Shown: in pieces, positions 2,504 through 42,838 of the stretch | Layout: every line of letters begins with the position of its first letter | Position numbering within the stretch: the stretch's first letter is position 1 | Assembly: GCA_018675635.1 (NCBI GenBank) | Contig: JABGXU010000008.1 | Span: 195,588-259,587 of the forward strand | Reading direction: 5' to 3' | DNA length: 64,000 nt | Origin: Gammaproteobacteria bacterium | Lineage (GTDB): Bacteria; Pseudomonadota; Gammaproteobacteria; Poriferisulfidales; GCA-002705445 | The notes under the pieces: generated by a model | What the model saw: only the letters and a program-made list of their open reading frames with translations | Database searches by the model: none | What the model was told of the DNA's origin: nothing | Made by a program: the position numbers and the translations under genes

Positions 2504-3814
2504 ATGAGCGAAGTAGTAGAAAAAATAGGACCAGATTATAAAGTAGCAGATATCTCTTTAGCTGATTGGGGTCATAAAGAAATGAGTATAGCTGAAACTG
2601 AAATGCCTGGTTTAATGGCTCTTAGAGAAAAACATGGTAAGGCTAAACCATTAAGTGGAGCAAAAATAGTAGGTTGTCTTCATATGACAATACAAACCGC
2701 AGTTCTTATAGAAACTTTAGTGGAACTTGGAGCAAGTGTTAGATGGTCATCATGCAATATATATTCAACACAAGATCATGCCGCCGCCGCAATTGCAGAA
2801 AAAGGAATACCTGTATTTGCATGGAAAGGAGAGACTGAGGAGGAGTATTTGTGGTGTATAGACCAAACAATTATAGGCAATCAATCATGGAAGCCTAATA
2901 TGATTTTAGATGACGGTGGTGATTTAACTTCAATAATGCATGAGAAATATCCTGAATTATTGTCCGAAGTTAAAGGCTTATCTGAAGAAACAACAACGGG
3001 TGTTCATCGCCTACATGAAATGGTAAAAAAAGATGCACTTAAAGTGCCGGCATTTAATGTAAATGACTCTGTTACAAAATCAAAATTTGATAATTTATAC
3101 GGATGCAGAGAATCTTTAGTTGACGGCATAAAAAGAGCTACTGATGTAATGATATCCGGGAAAACTGCATTAGTTTGTGGTTTTGGTGATGTTGGCAAAG
3201 GATCTGCTCAATCATTAAGAAATGCTGGAGCAATTGTATGGGTTACAGAAATTGATCCAATTTGTGCTCTTCAAGCTGCTATGGAAGGTTTTAAGGTTGT
3301 TACTATAGAATCTGTTGCATCAGAAGTTGACATTTTTGTAACAGCAACAGGAAATGCGTCTATTATTTCGTATACTCATATGAATAAAATGAAAGACCAG
3401 GCTATAGTTTGTAATATTGGCCATTTTGATAATGAAATAGATGTTGAATCAATAAAAGATTGTAAGTGGGATAATATAAAACCACAAGTTGATCATATTG
3501 AGTTTCCAGATGGCAAAAAGATTATATTGTTGGCAGAAGGAAGATTAATAAATTTAGGATGTGCAACTGGGCATCCAAGTTACGTTATGTCTGCTTCATT
3601 CACAAATCAAGTTTTAGCTCAAATAGAATTATGGGAAAACGCAAAAAAATATAAAAATGAAGTATATGTTTTACCTAAACTATTAGATGAAGAAGTTGCT
3701 AGATTACATCTTGATAAAGTTGGGGCAAAATTAACTAAACTTACAAAAGATCAAGCAGAATATATAAGTGTAGACCAAGATGGCCCTTATAAGAATGATA
3801 CATATAGATATTAA
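2504..3814 (+). CDS. ahcY: adenosylhomocysteinase
   Basis: 436 aa. Has [14 protein letters not shown], the [11 protein letters not shown] site and a C-terminal ..[11 protein letters not shown]. Starts 11 nt after metK. Confidence 0.96.
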
Positions 3815-12942: not shown

Positions 12943-13541
12943 TGATAAGAAAAGATTTTAAAATAATATCTGATTGGATAAAAAAAGATTCAACTGTTTT
13001 AGATTTAGGTTGTGGTGATTCAACCTTGCTTGAATATTTAAAAATAAATAAAAATATTTCTGGTTATGGATTTGAAAAAGATATTAATAAGGTTCAAGAG
13101 TCTATAAAAAAAAATATTAATGTAATACAAGCAGATTTTAATGTTGGTTTGGCAAAATATTTTAATAGTAACTTTTTTGATTACGCAGTTATGACTCAAG
13201 CACTTCAAGAAAACAAGAACCCAAATCATATAATTTTAGAAATGTTAAGGGTTGCAAGAGAAGGTATTGTAACTTTCCCCAATATGGGATTTTGGAAAAA
13301 CAGGTTTCAACTTGGTTTTCTTGGACGTATGCCAGTATCAAATTCATTGCCAAATAATTGGTTTGATACCCCAAATATTCATTTGTGTACTTTTAATGAT
13401 TTTGAAAAACTTTGTGGAGATTTAGAAATTATTATTTTAGATAAGAAAGTTTTAAATAATAATTATTCCACTAATTTTCTACTTAAAATATTTCCTAATT
13501 TTTTTGGGGAAATAGCTTTATATCGTTTTAAGAAAGATTAA
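12942..13541 (+). CDS. metW: methionine biosynthesis protein MetW
   Basis: 199 aa. VLDLGCGDSTLL methyltransferase-like fold. Canonical metX-metW coupling (1-nt overlap). Confidence 0.9.
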   Translation: MIRKDFKIISDWIKKDSTVLDLGCGDSTLLEYLKINKNISGYGFEKDINKVQESIKKNINVIQADFNVGLAKYFNSNFFDYAVMTQALQENKNPNHIILEMLRVAREGIVTFPNMGFWKNRFQLGFLGRMPVSNSLPNNWFDTPNIHLCTFNDFEKLCGDLEIIILDKKVLNNNYSTNFLLKIFPNFFGEIALYRFKKD

Positions 13542-13973
13542 TTATTTTGTTTTAATTTTTGCCTTAATAAAATCAGTATGACTTAAATGCAGTAATTCTG
13601 ATATTTTTCTAATTCTGTGTTCTTCATGTTTATCAATAATATTATCAACTCTTGCTATTTTCCAAGCCATATTAAGTATTGTTTTTTTCTGTGTATTAGT
13701 AAATTTATCGTTAATTAATTTAATGTACTTTCTAAGACAATTAATGTTCTTATGTAATTCTTGTGCTTCAGCAGTTACCCATTTAGCTTTTTCTTTGTCT
13801 AAATTATATTCTTTTTCAATTAGATTGACTATAGATCTAATTTCAATTTCACTAATTTTAAAGTCAGCATAGCTAACTTCTATTAAAATTATTGCACAAG
13901 CGATGTTAATATCACTTATTGGATCAATATTCTCTGGTGCTTTTTTAAATATTTTTTTTATTAGATTTAGCAT
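13542..13973 (-). CDS. TerB-like (tellurite-resistance TerB / DjlA N-domain family) protein
   Basis: 143 aa, helical. The pattern ..IEVSYADFKISEIE....I...L.......HEEHRIRKISELLHLSHTDF resembles TerB-family repeats. This is a by-eye assignment. Confidence 0.5.
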   Translation of the reverse strand: MLNLIKKIFKKAPENIDPISDINIACAIILIEVSYADFKISEIEIRSIVNLIEKEYNLDKEKAKWVTAEAQELHKNINCLRKYIKLINDKFTNTQKKTILNMAWKIARVDNIIDKHEEHRIRKISELLHLSHTDFIKAKIKTK

Positions 13974-14082
13974 AATTTATGATATTTTATCATTAATAGA
14001 ATATATAATTTTAATTTTTTCAATATCATTGATAATTTCATTATTAAGATATAAAGTAACATAAAATAATTTTTGATAAATT

Positions 14083-14481
14083 ATGACTAATTATACGGAT
14101 AAAGAATTTATGTACATAACAGAAACTGTTATGAGGATTTTAGATACTTGGAACCTTACAACCCAGCAAATGGTTTTAGTTATAGGACTTCCAACTCAAA
14201 CTAAGAAAAGACAGCTAGATAAATTCAGATCTCTAAAAGCTTTTCCAAAGGATGATCTAATTATAAAAAGGCTAAGTCATATAGTAGGAATATCTGATGC
14301 ACTACGAACTTCATTTCCAAGAAATGAAAATATGTCAGAAAAATGGTTAAAAACACAACATAGGAGATTTGATAATGAGACCCCTTTGTCTGTTATATTG
14401 GAGCAAGGGGTGGATGGACTATGTAAAGTAAGATCTGAATTAGATTGCACTTTTGCATGGGATACATCTGTACAAATTTAA
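14083..14481 (+). CDS. Xre/MbcA/ParS-type antitoxin-like protein (HTH plus DUF2384-like C-terminal domain)
   Basis: 132 aa. N-terminal HTH-like WNLTTQQMVLVIGLPTQTKKRQL. The C-terminal segment RLSHIVGISDALRTSFPRNENMSEKWLKTQHRRFDNETPLSVILEQGVDGLCKVRSEL parallels the MbcA/ParS toxin-binding domain pattern (DAL..P...W(L/M)......TP......G...V...L). Confidence 0.6.
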   Translation: MTNYTDKEFMYITETVMRILDTWNLTTQQMVLVIGLPTQTKKRQLDKFRSLKAFPKDDLIIKRLSHIVGISDALRTSFPRNENMSEKWLKTQHRRFDNETPLSVILEQGVDGLCKVRSELDCTFAWDTSVQI

Positions 14482-14493
14482 TCAATTAATATT

Positions 14494-15006
14494 ATGAAAA
14501 AACTTTACACAATAAAAAATTCAAAATTACATGGAAAAGGGTTATTTGCTAATTGCAACATAAAAGCCGAAACAAATATTGTTGAGTACGTTGGTGAAAA
14601 AATAACAAAAGCACAATCAGAGAAAATATCTGATATACAACTAAAAAAATCTCAAAAAAATAAAGATGAAGGGCAAGTATATATTTTCACATTAAATAAT
14701 AAATATGATATTAACGGCAATGTAAATTATAACAAAGCTAGATTAATGAATCATTCATGTAATTCTAATTGTGATACCGATATAATTGATAATAAAATTT
14801 GGATAAGATCGTATAAAGATATTAAGAAAGGTGAAGAATTGACATATGATTATGGTTTTACTTTTGATAAAGATGATTTTAGAGATCACATTTGTAAATG
14901 TGGGTCAAGAAAATGTGTAGGATTTATTGTAACTGAAACAGACTGGAAAAAGCTAAGAAAGTTTCTGTTAAAGCTAGCTAAAAATTGTTTAAAAACTAAC
15001 GAATAA
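14494..15006 (+). CDS. SET-domain protein methyltransferase with post-SET Cys motif
   Basis: 170 aa. GKGLFA, EYVGEKI, YIF, RLMNHSCNSNC, GEELTYDYGF and post-SET CKCGSRKCVG are the full set of canonical SET signatures. Starts 12 nt after the preceding ORF. Confidence 0.9.
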   Translation: MKKLYTIKNSKLHGKGLFANCNIKAETNIVEYVGEKITKAQSEKISDIQLKKSQKNKDEGQVYIFTLNNKYDINGNVNYNKARLMNHSCNSNCDTDIIDNKIWIRSYKDIKKGEELTYDYGFTFDKDDFRDHICKCGSRKCVGFIVTETDWKKLRKFLLKLAKNCLKTNE

Positions 15007-15655
15007 ATTTTTTTGAAAAGCAAGAAACGTTATTTATTGAAGTATAATTTTCTACTATTTGTTTTTCTTTTTTTGAATCCGGATAATTTATCGAGATAAG
15101 ATTTTTAATACCATTTTTTTCAGCAAATTTTAAAACATTTTCATTATCATCAATAAAGAATGTTTTTTCTTTATTATAAATTATATTTTTATTTAATATA
15201 TTCCAAAAATTTTCCGTCTCTTTGGCATACCCATAATCATGAGATGAAATTATTTTATTAAAATACCCCCATAATTTAGACTGTGTAATTTTAATATTTA
15301 GCATTTCTCTTGGGCAATTAGTTATTAGAACTGTATTAATCTGATTTTTTTTTAGAGTTTTAAGGAATTCTATTGTGTTAGGAAGCACTGAAATTTTGTC
15401 TTTGGTATTTAATATTTCTGATTTTAAATTAATGTTCAAAATATTACTCCAGTAATTTATGCTGTACCATTCAATAGTACTTTTTTTCTCCATATACATG
15501 CCTTCAAGTATTATTTTTGCTTCTGCAAATGTTGTTTTTTCTATTTTAGAATATAAATTTGGAATATGCTCATGCCAAAAATAGTTGTCATATGCTAGAT
15601 CAAGTAATGTTCCATCCATATCTAAAAAAAACGTTTCTATTACGCCCCATTTCAT
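14996..15655 (-). CDS. HAD-superfamily hydrolase (YrfG-like nucleotidase type)
   Basis: 219 aa. FLDMDGTLLDL (DxDxT), LITN and FIDDN motifs. Its 3' end overlaps the convergent SET gene by 11 nt. Confidence 0.7.
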   Translation of the reverse strand: MKWGVIETFFLDMDGTLLDLAYDNYFWHEHIPNLYSKIEKTTFAEAKIILEGMYMEKKSTIEWYSINYWSNILNINLKSEILNTKDKISVLPNTIEFLKTLKKNQINTVLITNCPREMLNIKITQSKLWGYFNKIISSHDYGYAKETENFWNILNKNIIYNKEKTFFIDDNENVLKFAEKNGIKNLISINYPDSKKEKQIVENYTSINNVSCFSKKFIR

Positions 15656-15692
15656 CTACTCTATTCCTACATTAGTTATTTATTTGATATAT

Positions 15693-16877
15693 ATGATAAC
15701 AGAAAAAAAATATACAGCTTTGGTAAACCTATTATTACAGGTACTGTTTGTTGGTATTTTGCTTGGGTTATTTAGAACTGCTATTCCAGCATTATCAGAA
15801 AGTGTTTTTTTAGTCCCTAAAAATTCATTTATATTTTTATCTACTTTTATTATTGCTTTTGGGATCATTAAGGGAATTGCTAATTATTATGCTGGTGTTT
15901 TTGCTGATAAATATAATAGAAAAACTGTTCTATTATTAGGTTGGTTAGTAGCATTTCCAGTTCCTTTTATAATTTATTTTGCTACAAATTGGTATTACAT
16001 AATTTTAGCCACATTTATTATTGGCATTAATCAAGGGCTAACCTGGTCAGTGACACAAATTTCAAGTGTAGATATTACAAAAAATGAGAATAGAGGATTT
16101 ATTGTTGGGTTAAATGAATTTTCTGGATATTTTGGTGTTGCTATTGGAGGTATTTTAGTTAGTTATATGACATCTTTACTTACAGTAAAAATAGCTTTAT
16201 TTCTTTTTAGTATAATATTTATTTTAATAGCTACTTTATATTGTATATTTTTGGTTAAAGAAACAAAAAGCTATGCAAACATAGCATTTGGTAAAAATCC
16301 AAAAAACGTTTTTTTATATGTAACATGGACAAATAAAAAATTATTTGCTTATTCTCAGGCAGGACACATTGAAAAATTTGTTGATACTTGTATATGGATC
16401 TTCTTCCCTGTTTATTTGTTTAATAACGGTGTAACTTTAATTGAAATTAGTTACATAGTTGGTACATATACTTTTACTTGGGGGATTTTTCAAATTTTCA
16501 CGGGTTTGTATTCTGATTATGTGGGAAGAAACTTATTAATTATATCAGGAATGTTAATTTGTTCTATTGTACTTCCATTATGTTTATTAAGTCTTGAATT
16601 TAGTTGGTGGATGACGTGTAGTTTTTTTCTTGGTTTGGGTATGGCTCTTTTATATCCGTCAATAAGCTCTGCTGTTAATGATAATTGTGATGATAGTTGG
16701 AGAGCTTCTGCAATTGGTATATATAGATTTTGGAGGGATACCGGTTATGCTACAGGAGCATTAGGATTAGGCATAGTAACAAGTTTAGTAAACATTGAGG
16801 CTGGCTTTATTTTTGTTTCTTTCAGCATGATATTGTCAACTTTAATTTTAATTTTTACTTTAAAAAAATATAGTTAG
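15693..16877 (+). CDS. MFS transporter
   Basis: About 394 aa with about 12 predicted TM helices. The loop motif GVFADKYNRKTV resembles the MFS D-R/K-x-G-R-R/K loop. Start trimmed to ATG 15693 to avoid overlapping the HAD gene. Confidence 0.75.
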   Translation: MITEKKYTALVNLLLQVLFVGILLGLFRTAIPALSESVFLVPKNSFIFLSTFIIAFGIIKGIANYYAGVFADKYNRKTVLLLGWLVAFPVPFIIYFATNWYYIILATFIIGINQGLTWSVTQISSVDITKNENRGFIVGLNEFSGYFGVAIGGILVSYMTSLLTVKIALFLFSIIFILIATLYCIFLVKETKSYANIAFGKNPKNVFLYVTWTNKKLFAYSQAGHIEKFVDTCIWIFFPVYLFNNGVTLIEISYIVGTYTFTWGIFQIFTGLYSDYVGRNLLIISGMLICSIVLPLCLLSLEFSWWMTCSFFLGLGMALLYPSISSAVNDNCDDSWRASAIGIYRFWRDTGYATGALGLGIVTSLVNIEAGFIFVSFSMILSTLILIFTLKKYS

Positions 16878-18449: not shown

Positions 18450-18712
18450 ATATCAAAAATTAATATTCTGTTGAAATAGTGTGAATGATATTGATGAAGC
18501 CACTTCGGGAATGTGGAAAAATCATAAACCATATTAACTTTTATTTTTTTTCCTTTTTCTTTTATTAGTAAATTAGTTAGCGTTATTTTAATTTTATCAT
18601 CTAGATCAGTAATCTCTTTTGCTTTCAATTTCAAGAAATTATTTTTCGCAAACCAATAATTATTATTATGGCTAATTTGTAATTCTGTATTTATTACTAG
18701 TATTGTCTTCAT
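18446..18712 (-). CDS. hypothetical protein (88 aa), translationally coupled to the downstream transporter
   Basis: ORF overlaps the genes on both sides (4-nt ATGA-type overlap with the upstream micro-ORF; 4-nt overlap with the transporter start). I recognise no motif. Confidence 0.5.
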   Translation of the reverse strand: MKTILVINTELQISHNNNYWFAKNNFLKLKAKEITDLDDKIKITLTNLLIKEKGKKIKVNMVYDFSTFPKWLHQYHSHYFNRILIFDI

Positions 18713-18873
18713 AATACTAACAAGTTTATTAAAATACCGAGAATAATTAAACCAATAATGGCAATTAGGATACTATAGATTACTAGTTTTGATTCCCAGC
18801 TTTCCCATGGTTCTGGGTTACTTAGTAATTCTTGCGCAGACTCTAATTCAATAGATTTTACTTTATCTTTCAT
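18709..18873 (-). CDS. small single-pass membrane protein (54 aa), not in ORF track
   Basis: Manual translation: MKDKVKSIELESAQELLSNPEPWESWESKLVIYSILIAIIGLIILGILINLLVL. Its TGA overlaps the ATG of the 88-aa ORF. C-terminal TM helix. Confidence 0.45.
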   Translation of the reverse strand: MKDKVKSIELESAQELLSNPEPWESWESKLVIYSILIAIIGLIILGILINLLVL

Positions 18874-19012
18874 TTTTAAAAACCTCATAAAGTACTTTAT
18901 ATAATATATGGAAAAATTTGCTAAATTAACAAATTTTTCTTATAGAGTAGTTTAATATGAATAGCATAAAAGTTAGATATGCTAAAGATTTTTTTTAATA
19001 GAATATTATAAA

Positions 19013-19088
19013 TGGTGGCTCGGGGCAGAATTGAACTGCCGACACGAGGATTTTCAGTCCACTGCTCTACCAACTGAGCTACCAAGCC
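19013..19088 (-). tRNA. tRNA-Phe (GAA)
   Basis: The reverse complement reads GGCTTGGTAGCTCAGTTGGTAGAGCAGTGGACTGAAAATCCTCGTGTCGGCAGTTCAATTCTGCCCCGAGCCACCA. It is 76 nt with a 7-bp acceptor stem, a CT-GAA-AA anticodon loop, a GTTCAAT T-loop and an encoded CCA. Confidence 0.95.
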
Positions 19089-19276
19089 GTTATTCATTTA
19101 TAATTCATTATGAAAAAAGTGAGTATACACTAATGTATTAATAGATGAAGTTATGTTTTTAATGATAAATTTTTTTATATTTTTTCATCAATATGAAATA
19201 TATTAGATATTCATTATATTCGAATAATGGTATTTATTATAAATATTCAGTGAGTTTTTTTTATTTCTAAATTAAT

Positions 19277-19540
19277 TTATTTTGGTTTAAATTCCTTAGG
19301 GAGCTCTGAACCTCTGCCAAATAAAAATTTTTCCATTTCTTCTTCTAAAAAAGTTCTAGCTTTTGGTTCCATAGGTGTCAGTCTATTTTCATTAATAAGC
19401 ATGGTCATATGCTTCACCCAAAGAGCCCATGCTTCTTTCGAAATATTTTCAAAAATTTTTTTACCTAATTCTCCAGGATATGTAGGTCTATCTAAACCTC
19501 CCAACTCTTTATTAAGCATTAAACAATTTACAGTACGCAT
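19277..19540 (-). CDS. yggX: Fe(2+)-trafficking / oxidative damage protection protein YggX
   Basis: 87 aa. [48 protein letters not shown] is typical of YggX. Confidence 0.85.
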
Positions 19541-19743
19541 TAGGAAAGTTCCTCCGTCATTTTATTATAACCGATTTAACTGGTTTTGAAGATGCAATAT
19601 TATCATAAATATTTTTCCAGTAATATTTATCAATTGTTATATTATTTATTGATTTCGTTTTAATAACAGAAACATTCATTTTAATATGTGTTAAATTATG
19701 TCTGCCATTATTTTTATGACAGCTAATTAAGTTATAAGAAAAA

Positions 19744-23803: not shown

Positions 23804-24061
23804 CTATTTTTTATATAAATAATGTAAATTTTTATTGATTTTTTTAATTTTCTTCTAAATCTAGCATGGAATAAGGTTATTTATTCACAGTTATTTTTTT
23901 GTCAACTTCTTTTATAAATTTATTAAAAATAAATTAGCGTTAAAAATTATTAATTTTTATTTAATAAAATCAATAAGTTATATTGTACAAAAAATGAACA
24001 ATTTAGTAATTATTAAAGAATGTTTGCCGTGTGATTAAAAAACTAAGTTTTTTGCACAGAC

Positions 24062-24084
24062 TTATCCACAATTTTTGTGGATAT
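24062..24084. promoter_or_regulatory. palindromic pair of DnaA-box-like sequences
   Basis: TTATCCACA (24062-24070) is a perfect TTATNCACA consensus. TGTGGATAT (24076-24084) is ATATCCACA on the other strand, with 1 mismatch. Together they form a perfect 9-bp inverted repeat, TATCCACAA-TTT-TTGTGGATA (24063-24083). Confidence 0.5.
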
Positions 24085-24160
24085 AAAAAATATCCTTAAA
24101 AACAGTAATTTATATAGATATATTAAAATTTATTACCAAATAATAGGCTAACTATGGTAA

Positions 24161-24221
24161 AAATACCTACCAATTCATTATATTATTATTGTCTTATAGA
24201 CGATATTACTTGTAGGTATTT
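24161..24221 (+). repeat. 10-bp perfect inverted repeat in the rpmE leader, with a second copy of the 3' arm
   Basis: AAATACCTAC (24161-24170) and GTAGGTATTT (24212-24221) are exact reverse complements, 41 nt apart. TAGGTATT recurs at 24229-24236, about 30 nt before the rpmE ATG. Function unknown. Confidence 0.55.
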
Positions 24222-24267
24222 AGTTCTTTAGGTATTATTCACTCTCTTAATTTACAATAAAGATATT

Positions 24268-24474
24268 ATGCAAAAAAATATTCATCCAAAATATAATGAA
24301 ATAGAGGTTGTTTGTAGTTGTGGTAACAAATTTATAACAAAATCTACATATAAAGACTCGGTTCTTTCTATAGACGTATGTTCTCAATGTCATCCTTTTT
24401 ATACTGGAAAGCAAAAGATATTAGATACCGCAGGTCAGGTAGATAAGTTTAAAAAGAGATATAGCAAAACATAA
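24268..24474 (+). CDS. rpmE: 50S ribosomal protein L31 (Zn-ribbon type)
   Basis: 68 aa. MQKNIHPKY..., CSCG...[13 protein letters not shown]. Confidence 0.95.
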
Positions 24475-24526
24475 ATTTTATCTAATTCTGCTTTATATTC
24501 ATTGTTTTTTTCGGCAATATTAGCTT

Positions 24527-41898: not shown

Positions 41899-41989
41899 AT
41901 GAGGCTGATTATAGTGTATTATAGAATTTATTGTTGTATAGATAGCAAATATTTGTTATCTTTTTTCTTTTTAAAGGTTTGAGATTATT

Positions 41990-42214
41990 ATGTCAAGAAT
42001 ATGTGAAGTTACTGGTAAAAAACCAATGTCTGGAAATAACGTTTCTCATGCAAAAAATAGAACAAGAAGACGTTTTCTGCCTAATTTACAAATGCACAGA
42101 TTTTGGGTGGAAGCTCAAAAAAAATGGATTTCTTTAAGAATTTCAAGAAAAGGATTAAGAATTATAGAAAAAAAAGGAATTGAAACTGTATTAAAGGAAA
42201 TAAATAAGATATGA
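41990..42214 (+). CDS. rpmB: 50S ribosomal protein L28
   Basis: 74 aa. [34 protein letters not shown]. Confidence 0.95.
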
Positions 42215-42366
42215 GAGAGAAAATTAAACTAGTATCTTCTGCAAAAACAGGGCATTACTACACTACAACTAAGAATAAGAAAAATACACCAGATAAGATG
42301 GAAATCAAAAAATTTGATCCAGTTGTTAGAAAGCATGTAATTTATAAGGAAGCAAAAATTAAATAG
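42211..42366 (+). CDS. rpmG: 50S ribosomal protein L33 (below ORF-track size cutoff)
   Basis: Manual translation: [51 protein letters not shown] (51 aa). ATGA overlap with rpmB. Confidence 0.9.
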
Positions 42367-42369
42367 TTA

Positions 42370-42681
42370 TTATTCCGGGCAAGGGCAAAAACATTGGCCT
42401 TTAGCATTCCAGCAACATCTTCCAGATTCACCTGTTTTACTTTTCCACATTGCGCAACCAATTCCTGTAGCTCTAGGTCCTAAAGGATCAGCAACCTTAA
42501 CAGCAATTTTATCCTTAATGTTGACAGTAACGTATTCGAATTGTGATTTACTTTTATTTGTAATCACAGTTTCTGTATCTTCTTCGCCATCATCAAAAGC
42601 CCAATCATAAACCTCATTTACTGTCGAACAACCAGAAATCATTAAAAAAGCAATAATTGGAAAAACAATTTTAAATTTCAT
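42370..42681 (-). CDS. small lipoprotein with Cys-rich C-terminus, unknown function
   Basis: 103 aa. Lipoprotein signal MKFKIVFPIIAFLMISG|CS, an acidic linker, and 7 Cys in the last 29 residues (GCAMWKSKTGESGRCCWNAKGQCFCPCPE). Confidence 0.6.
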   Translation of the reverse strand: MKFKIVFPIIAFLMISGCSTVNEVYDWAFDDGEEDTETVITNKSKSQFEYVTVNIKDKIAVKVADPLGPRATGIGCAMWKSKTGESGRCCWNAKGQCFCPCPE

Positions 42682-42838
42682 GTTAAAAAAACTCCCTAAT
42701 TTTAAGTTGAATTAATAGTTTTTTACTATTATATCTATATTTGATTTATAATGTACTCTATATTTTTTATATTTACAAAATATATTAGATAAATATACGG
42801 TTGCAATATATCCCATAAATTATGTAAAGAGATCATTT

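Follow-up and report, generated by a model that had tools for sequence, protein, structure and literature searches.

When a gene for an antitoxin-like protein is followed, 12 nt downstream, by a gene for a SET-domain methyltransferase, does the methyltransferase take the place of the RES toxin in a toxin-antitoxin (TA) module, or is there another explanation for the adjacency? The question is raised by a gene pair, A and SET, in a 64,000-nucleotide stretch of a gammaproteobacterial contig (hereafter, the window). An earlier note, made from the sequence alone, had placed SET in the toxin slot and proposed a TA-like or inhibitor-effector module, with the fallback that SET stands behind an Xre-type regulator. 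Such a pairing (SET domain with DUF2384) was not found described in the searchable literature. Across a comparison of about 170 related loci, we conclude that A-SET is very probably not a TA module; on balance, it is probably a lineage-specific two-gene operon that formed when SET arrived downstream of a more ancient regulator standing on its own. The features of the locus are as follows.

14029..14057, + strand: promoter-like element TTGATA-17 nt-TAAAGT (consensus scan and conservation)
14083..14481, + strand: gene A, 132 aa, Xre helix-turn-helix (HTH) and DUF2384 (Xre/MbcA/ParS C-terminal domain)
14482..14493, + strand: A-SET junction, 12 nt, A/T-rich, too short for a promoter
14494..15006, + strand: gene B (SET), 170 aa, predicted SET and post-SET protein-lysine methyltransferase

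Gene A and the RES-Xre antitoxins

The DUF2384 domain that the earlier note had recognized by eye in the 132-aa product of gene A is confirmed by Pfam: the PF09722 (Xre_MbcA_ParS_C) profile matches residues 78-121 with 27.9 bits, above the gathering score of 24.5 (E = 2.3 × 10−6). The Xre-like HTH fared less uniformly, in that the respective Pfam model, PF20432, remains sub-threshold (13.4 vs. 25.8 bits) whereas the fold is that of an antitoxin. With NCBIfam NF049845 (Xre_ParS_antitoxin, type II RES/Xre antitoxin), A scores 25.3 bits vs. a cut-off of 90 and is not a member. The AlphaFold model of A (16 family members; pLDDT 87.3, pTM 0.81) has seven helices, and 9 of its 10 best fold matches in the PDB are RES-Xre antitoxins, with nearly the whole chain aligned. 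Against NatR (8qnq/8qnl), TMq is 0.74 and TMt 0.76-0.85 (E = 2 × 10−4); the other matching antitoxin folds include MbcA (6fkg_C), VPA0769 (8gug_C) and P. putida Xre (6gw6_B/9r35), and across NatR, MbcA, VPA0769 and Xre, 121-126 of the 132 residues align, with TMq not exceeding 0.75. On plasmids, tblastn matches of A are annotated MbcA/ParS/Xre antitoxins (26-31% identity), and in at least four cases among the matches listed, a RES gene overlaps the match. Comparison of the A-family profile with PDB sequences retrieved no antitoxin, the best hits being uronate isomerase and similar proteins (E ≥ 0.018), so that the kinship of A with antitoxins is visible by three routes alone, the Pfam HMM, the fold and the plasmid tblastn.

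The RES-Xre systems compared were NatR-NatT of P. aeruginosa, MbcA-MbcT of M. tuberculosis, ParS-ParT of Sphingobium, Xre-RES of P. putida, and VPA0769-VPA0770. [quoted passage not shown] Unlike them, A has no adjoining RES toxin (the downstream ORF matches SET only, and not PF08808), SET follows it in the window's clade only, and elsewhere the A family has a conserved partner upstream, a helical protein of ~95 aa. Judging by domain content and fold, A appears to be an orphan antitoxin-like protein and a putative transcriptional regulator.

The SET protein and its relatives

The second gene encodes, as the earlier note had it, a complete 170-aa SET protein that begins 12 nt after A. PF00856 is matched over its full profile (1-105) with 82.9 bits, vs. 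a threshold of 22.4, and all canonical motifs are present, namely N86-H87-S88-C89, E115-L-T-Y118-D-Y120 and post-SET C134-x-C136-x4-C141; NHSC, ELTYDY and C-x-C-x4-C are invariant across the 17-sequence alignment of the SET family. The nearest solved relatives are the SET domains of MLL/KMT2 and SET1 (E = 10−19 to 10−20). Given the Pfam scores, the fold of A, its plasmid relatives and the invariant SET motifs, the domain calls made by eye were well above chance.

Like the small stand-alone SET proteins with which it was compared (Methanosarcina Go1-SET, chlamydial SET/NUE, and the proteins of Burkholderiaceae and Pelagibacterales that NCBI names 'SET domain-containing protein-lysine N-methyltransferase'), the window SET falls within ~160-170 aa, consists of SET and post-SET alone, and retains complete catalytic and zinc-cluster motifs; unlike all other members of the SET family examined, it appears to share an operon with an Xre/DUF2384 gene located ahead of it. 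With the secreted effectors of pathogens (Legionella RomA/LegAS4-AnkI, Chlamydia NUE, and the SET effectors of Bacillus and Burkholderia), it shares the SET catalytic domain but has no ankyrin or other extra domains. Its distance from RomA/LegAS4-AnkI is apparent from NF043024 (T4SS_AnkI), with which it scores 24.7 bits vs. a cut-off of 550, the SET core alone being aligned.

The SET family comprises 1154 homologues of ~160-170 aa, mostly from marine plankton, the sources of the homologues of the window SET being metagenomes of open-ocean plankton as well as MAGs and single-cell genomes of ~1.1 Mb. One homologue, P0190 (56% identical), carries the NCBI label Pelagibacterales, the only such label among the outgroup SETs. 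No match for SET was found among phage genomes. At all 87 other marine SET loci (50-60% identity of SET), an A-like neighbor is absent; these comprise 7 loci from exact protein look-up and 80 metagenome loci (380 kb in total), the flanks covered around loci being 3-5 kb. In the 7 looked-up loci, a Wzy_C gene precedes the SET orthologue and there is no PF09722 gene nearby; in the 80 metagenome loci, the A-family HMM, which would overlook unrelated DUF2384 subfamilies, detected nothing at E ≤ 1, and the genes upstream of SET are diverse, variable polysaccharide genes. An Xre/DUF2384 neighbor is likewise absent from the megaplasmid SET loci of Burkholderiaceae/Variovorax (0/4; 31-34% identity). 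The existence of SET without an A-like gene in 87 loci implies that the SET family needs no A-type inhibitor, which in turn argues against intrinsic toxicity.

On the SAR11-type contigs (L090-L176), SET orthologues edge polysaccharide/LPS clusters (e.g. L091:1756-3489), the commonest setting being directly after a Wzy_C gene (31/77 loci). One contig, L094, carries two copies of SET ~750 nt apart (1421-1912 and 2660-3148).

With regard to the substrate, free-living bacteria encode SET proteins, and the known precedents among small prokaryotic SETs have chromatin and nucleoid proteins as substrates, as with Methanosarcina Go1-SET, which acts on MC1-alpha (PMC3980110). By analogy, the SET substrate could possibly be a nucleoid-associated or other abundant basic protein, although we would not bet on it. 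Two of the four plasmid loci have nucleoid-protein neighbors, a weak hint that small bacterial SETs may act on nucleoid-associated proteins: H-NS lies ~1.4 kb upstream of SET on L177 (716-1036 and 2498-2935), and HU ~380 nt upstream on L180 (1832-2110 and 2486-2929).

Distribution of the pair and the usual partner of A

We identified 94 close homologues of A, nearly all from marine metagenomes; a GTDB scan with one genome per species confirmed 140 relatives, and 80 of these 140 loci were kept and examined. The relatives are found in Thiotrichales-like and sulfur-oxidising Gammaproteobacteria, the named hosts being Candidatus Porisulfidus, Cocleimonas, Leucothrix, Thiolinea and Thiohalophilus, and the others ~1.1-Mb MAGs or single-cell genomes labelled "Thiothrix sp." or "Gammaproteobacteria bacterium".

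Conservation of the pair, which the earlier note proposed as a check, holds within the window's clade but does not extend beyond it. SET lies directly 3' of A in 11/11 genomes of the clade (A 68-81% and SET 70-86% identical) and on the L089 metagenome contig, whereas no SET was detected by the SET-family HMM within 5 kb of A in the 69 other genomes with A (0/69). The two genes are not inherited as a module: A is found without SET at 69 of the 80 loci, and SET without A at 87 marine and 4 plasmid loci. An apparent lack of A in L089 was rejected, since A is frameshifted on this error-prone long-read contig; at L089:883-3582 of this long-read, pilon-polished sequence, metX, TerB and A are all split and A-SET forms a read-through frame, which most likely reflects homopolymer errors in the assembly and not genuine pseudogenes. 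No RES-like neighbor family was found at the 80 genomic A loci, and RES adjoins A in 0/80. The gene downstream of A varies:

CxxCxxCC/YkgJ-type: 19 loci
SET: 10 loci clustered (11 by tblastn)
HTH-like, 145 aa: 8 loci
BioA-like: 5 loci
Others or none: the remaining loci

Among the 69 genomes outside the window's clade, 48 have a gene for a protein of ~95 aa, denoted U, immediately 5' of A and co-directional with it, and the two frequently overlap by 4 nt (ATGA) at the start of A; these U-A loci fall in L020-L088 (e.g. L021:4672-5405, L024:4729-5402, L056:4422-5167). In its model, U forms a helical hairpin and carries a disordered tail whose motif, RPxYxDEP, is conserved. The model has no significant fold match, and U belongs to no Pfam or NCBIfam family. 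U is missing at all loci of the SET clade and throughout the 64-kb window, and at 19 loci, A is accompanied by neither U nor SET. Some U proteins are annotated by NCBI as "segregation and condensation protein A" (ScpA). ScpA is ~250 residues long; U, with its ~95 residues, is too short and no model stands behind the name, which we therefore rejected.

A sub-lineage of A loci has two uncharacterised neighbors, a 108-aa ORF family upstream, unrelated to U by HMM (L030, L033, L038, L039, L042, L046, L047, L054), and a 145-aa protein downstream with a weakly Fis/HTH_8-like N-terminus (L030, L038, L042, L047, L051, L054, L061, L069).

History of the locus

In the sister group (A ~48% and MetX ~65% identical to those of the window), the order proC-yggT-metX-metW ... 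TerB(-) ... A ... HAD(-) is shared with the window, but the sister group reads U-A-CxxCxxCC where the window has A-SET. The upstream neighbor of A in the window is the divergent TerB gene, and of the 69 genome-scan loci that do not belong to the SET clade, 24 have the HAD gene next to A. The shared synteny indicates that A is old and vertically inherited and that SET joined it later, in a single streamlined clade, where it would have been inserted behind A or have replaced another gene there. SET can thus hardly be said to occupy a toxin slot, as had been proposed, given that A is older than the adjacency, U is its usual partner, and SET stands beside it in one clade. NatRT is itself a core-genome TA system (PMC11535050), so the core, syntenic location of A would be compatible with a TA function.

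Conservation of the C-terminal domain of A

In MbcA, ParS and NatR, the toxin-binding surface is the C-terminal domain (PMC7758455; PMC11535050). We compared 12 SET-linked with 36 U-linked sequences of A, counting as conserved those positions at which both groups have the same residue with a conservation of 80% or more:

C-terminal domain, residues 58-125: 26 positions conserved in both groups, 1 switched (A71S)
N-terminal part, residues 1-57: 8 positions conserved in both groups, 2 switched

The sole C-terminal switch between SET-linked and U-linked A, A71S, is conservative. Such conservation in both groups is difficult to square with an interface specific for SET, and implies only that the conserved function of A predates SET and is independent of it. 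The toxin-binding-type surface of A appears, from these alignments, to be maintained whatever its neighbor.

The junction and the probable operon

Upstream of A, the block with the sigma-70-like, promoter-like element at 14029-14057 is kept in 12/12 genomes of the clade and is the only conserved block in the TerB-A intergenic region. Promoter-like matches were no commoner than in shuffled sequence, so that the support for this site comes from its conservation rather than from the scan. A GGTGA-like ribosome-binding site follows the block in most members of the clade; the window has TTTTGAT. A conserved operator palindrome upstream of A was not found, and inverted repeats in this region were rejected as operators, being A/T-rich and outside the conserved block. 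The A-SET junction is 8-15 nt long and A/T-rich in 10 genomes of the clade, and in L018, the two genes overlap in ATGA; the junction contains neither a promoter nor a Shine-Dalgarno sequence, and no terminator-like site was found in 13400-15800. At its 3' end, SET overlaps the convergent HAD hydrolase gene (14996-15655, − strand) by 11 nt.

With the conserved block upstream of A, the promoter-less junction and the ATGA overlap in L018, A and SET probably form one operon, and their co-transcription, as read from the sequence, is quite likely. The fallback of the earlier note, that SET is encoded behind an Xre-type regulator, fits this anatomy, the regulation itself being putative. The 12-nt spacer, on the other hand, is no evidence of a module because such spacing is ordinary in this compact genome: the window is ~90% coding, co-directional gaps have a median of 8 nt, 61% of them are 12 nt or less, and unrelated genes abut, e.g. 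metW/TerB and SET/HAD.

The only Rfam match in the window (1-64000) at the gathering threshold is a tRNA (19016-19088, − strand), which lies in one of the ORF-poor stretches (18450-19743, 23804-24526 and 41899-42838).

Alternative explanations

Several features of the pair are those expected of a partner swap, whereby, after the loss of U, A came to serve SET alone, as a post-translational inhibitor or an obligate partner, with a methyltransferase replacing the RES toxin: the antitoxin fold of A, including a C-terminal helix 7 like the one that NatR inserts into NatT (PMC11535050), the antitoxin-first order with the 12-nt gap and the overlap in L018, the retention of the pair in 12/12 cases (the clade and L089), and the lack of U exactly where SET is present. 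We nevertheless consider this scenario quite improbable. The enzyme family needs no inhibitor, as the 87 loci with SET orthologues but no A-like gene attest; the same 26 C-terminal positions are kept in clades without SET; 19 lineages have A but neither U nor SET; A and SET are as conserved as metX and metW in the ~1.1-Mb streamlined genomes; and gap length is uninformative in this genome. The TA-like or inhibitor-effector module of the earlier note is left unsupported by the same observations, namely SET orthologues without A, no clade-specific remodelling of DUF2384, and a gap of typical length. Re-use of the DUF2384 protein after the loss of U as a binding partner of SET, be it an inhibitor, a specificity factor or a co-repressor, strikes us as very improbable. 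If it were true, no earlier case would exist of a DUF2384 "toxin-binding" domain that controls any enzyme besides a RES NADase/ADP-ribosyltransferase, nor of a bacterial SET enzyme regulated at the protein level.

At the other extreme, A and SET could be unrelated neighbors, SET having been inserted at a permissive site between convergent genes and being transcribed from its own promoter in the 3' part of A. The variation of the gene downstream of A by clade (CxxCxxCC, HTH-like, BioA, none), the compactness of a genome in which unrelated genes lie 0-12 nt apart, and promoter-like hexamers inside A (14347-14376), in A/T-rich sequence, are all compatible with this possibility, which we regard as unlikely given that the intragenic matches are no commoner than in shuffled sequence, that the junction lacks a promoter and a separate ribosome-binding site, with the ATGA overlap in one genome, that no terminator was found after A, and that the only conserved non-coding block is upstream of A. 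Highly improbable, in our assessment, is that SET is irrelevant to A and A counteracts a toxin, RES-type or other, whose gene lies at a distant genomic site: the fold, the PF09722 domain and a C-terminal domain that is strongly conserved throughout the clades, irrespective of neighbors, would accord with such a role, but RES adjoins A in none of the 80 genomic loci, and the conserved neighbor is U, a 95-aa helical hairpin.

A probable lineage-specific operon

Under the reading that we favor, a lineage-specific operon, gene A would encode a long-established Xre-HTH/DUF2384 protein, passed on vertically among Thiotrichales-like marine Gammaproteobacteria and keeping a fixed place on the chromosome (proC-yggT-metX-metW ... 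TerB / A / HAD), in most lineages translationally coupled to the upstream, ~95-aa helical U. The streamlined ~1.1-Mb clade of the window would have lost U, and SET, whose closest relatives outside the lineage appear to be those of SAR11-type bacterioplankton, would have taken the place that a CxxCxxCC (YkgJ-type) gene holds in the sister group, last in the transcription unit of A and before the convergent HAD gene. SET would most likely be transcribed from the conserved promoter of A and translated by coupling to A. NatR autoregulates natRT (PMC11535050), and P. putida Xre is reported to autorepress its operon (PMC12204516). By analogy with these proteins, A probably binds its own promoter and autorepresses, and would so set the level of SET; DNA binding and autoregulation are both inferred, and we deem it reasonably likely that A acts as an autoregulator. 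SET itself would be a non-toxic cytoplasmic protein-lysine methyltransferase, the best guess for its substrate being an abundant basic or nucleoid-associated protein.

Some observations point against this explanation. The loss of U and the gain of SET coincide exactly, as a partner swap would show; the pair is perfectly conserved in the clade, with the ATGA overlap; and the antitoxin-first order copies RES-Xre. With respect to the operon and the autoregulator, there is no conserved operator palindrome, and the Pfam model of the HTH is sub-threshold.

Implications

The candidacy of A-SET as a TA module does not hold up, and saying so spares wet-lab effort. Both gene families were already known, and the adjacency is best explained by the history of the locus in a compact genome. 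DUF2384/Xre proteins can be conserved core genes without RES, so that default annotation as antitoxins is unsafe. The U-A pair of sulfur-oxidising Gammaproteobacteria is an undescribed, conserved, non-RES partnership of a DUF2384 protein, a more intriguing lead than A-SET that deserves separate attention. Finally, the conservation of a small SET in several ocean bacteria whose genomes are among the most streamlined (the window's clade and the SAR11 type) points to a putative housekeeping function of this enzyme in protein methylation.
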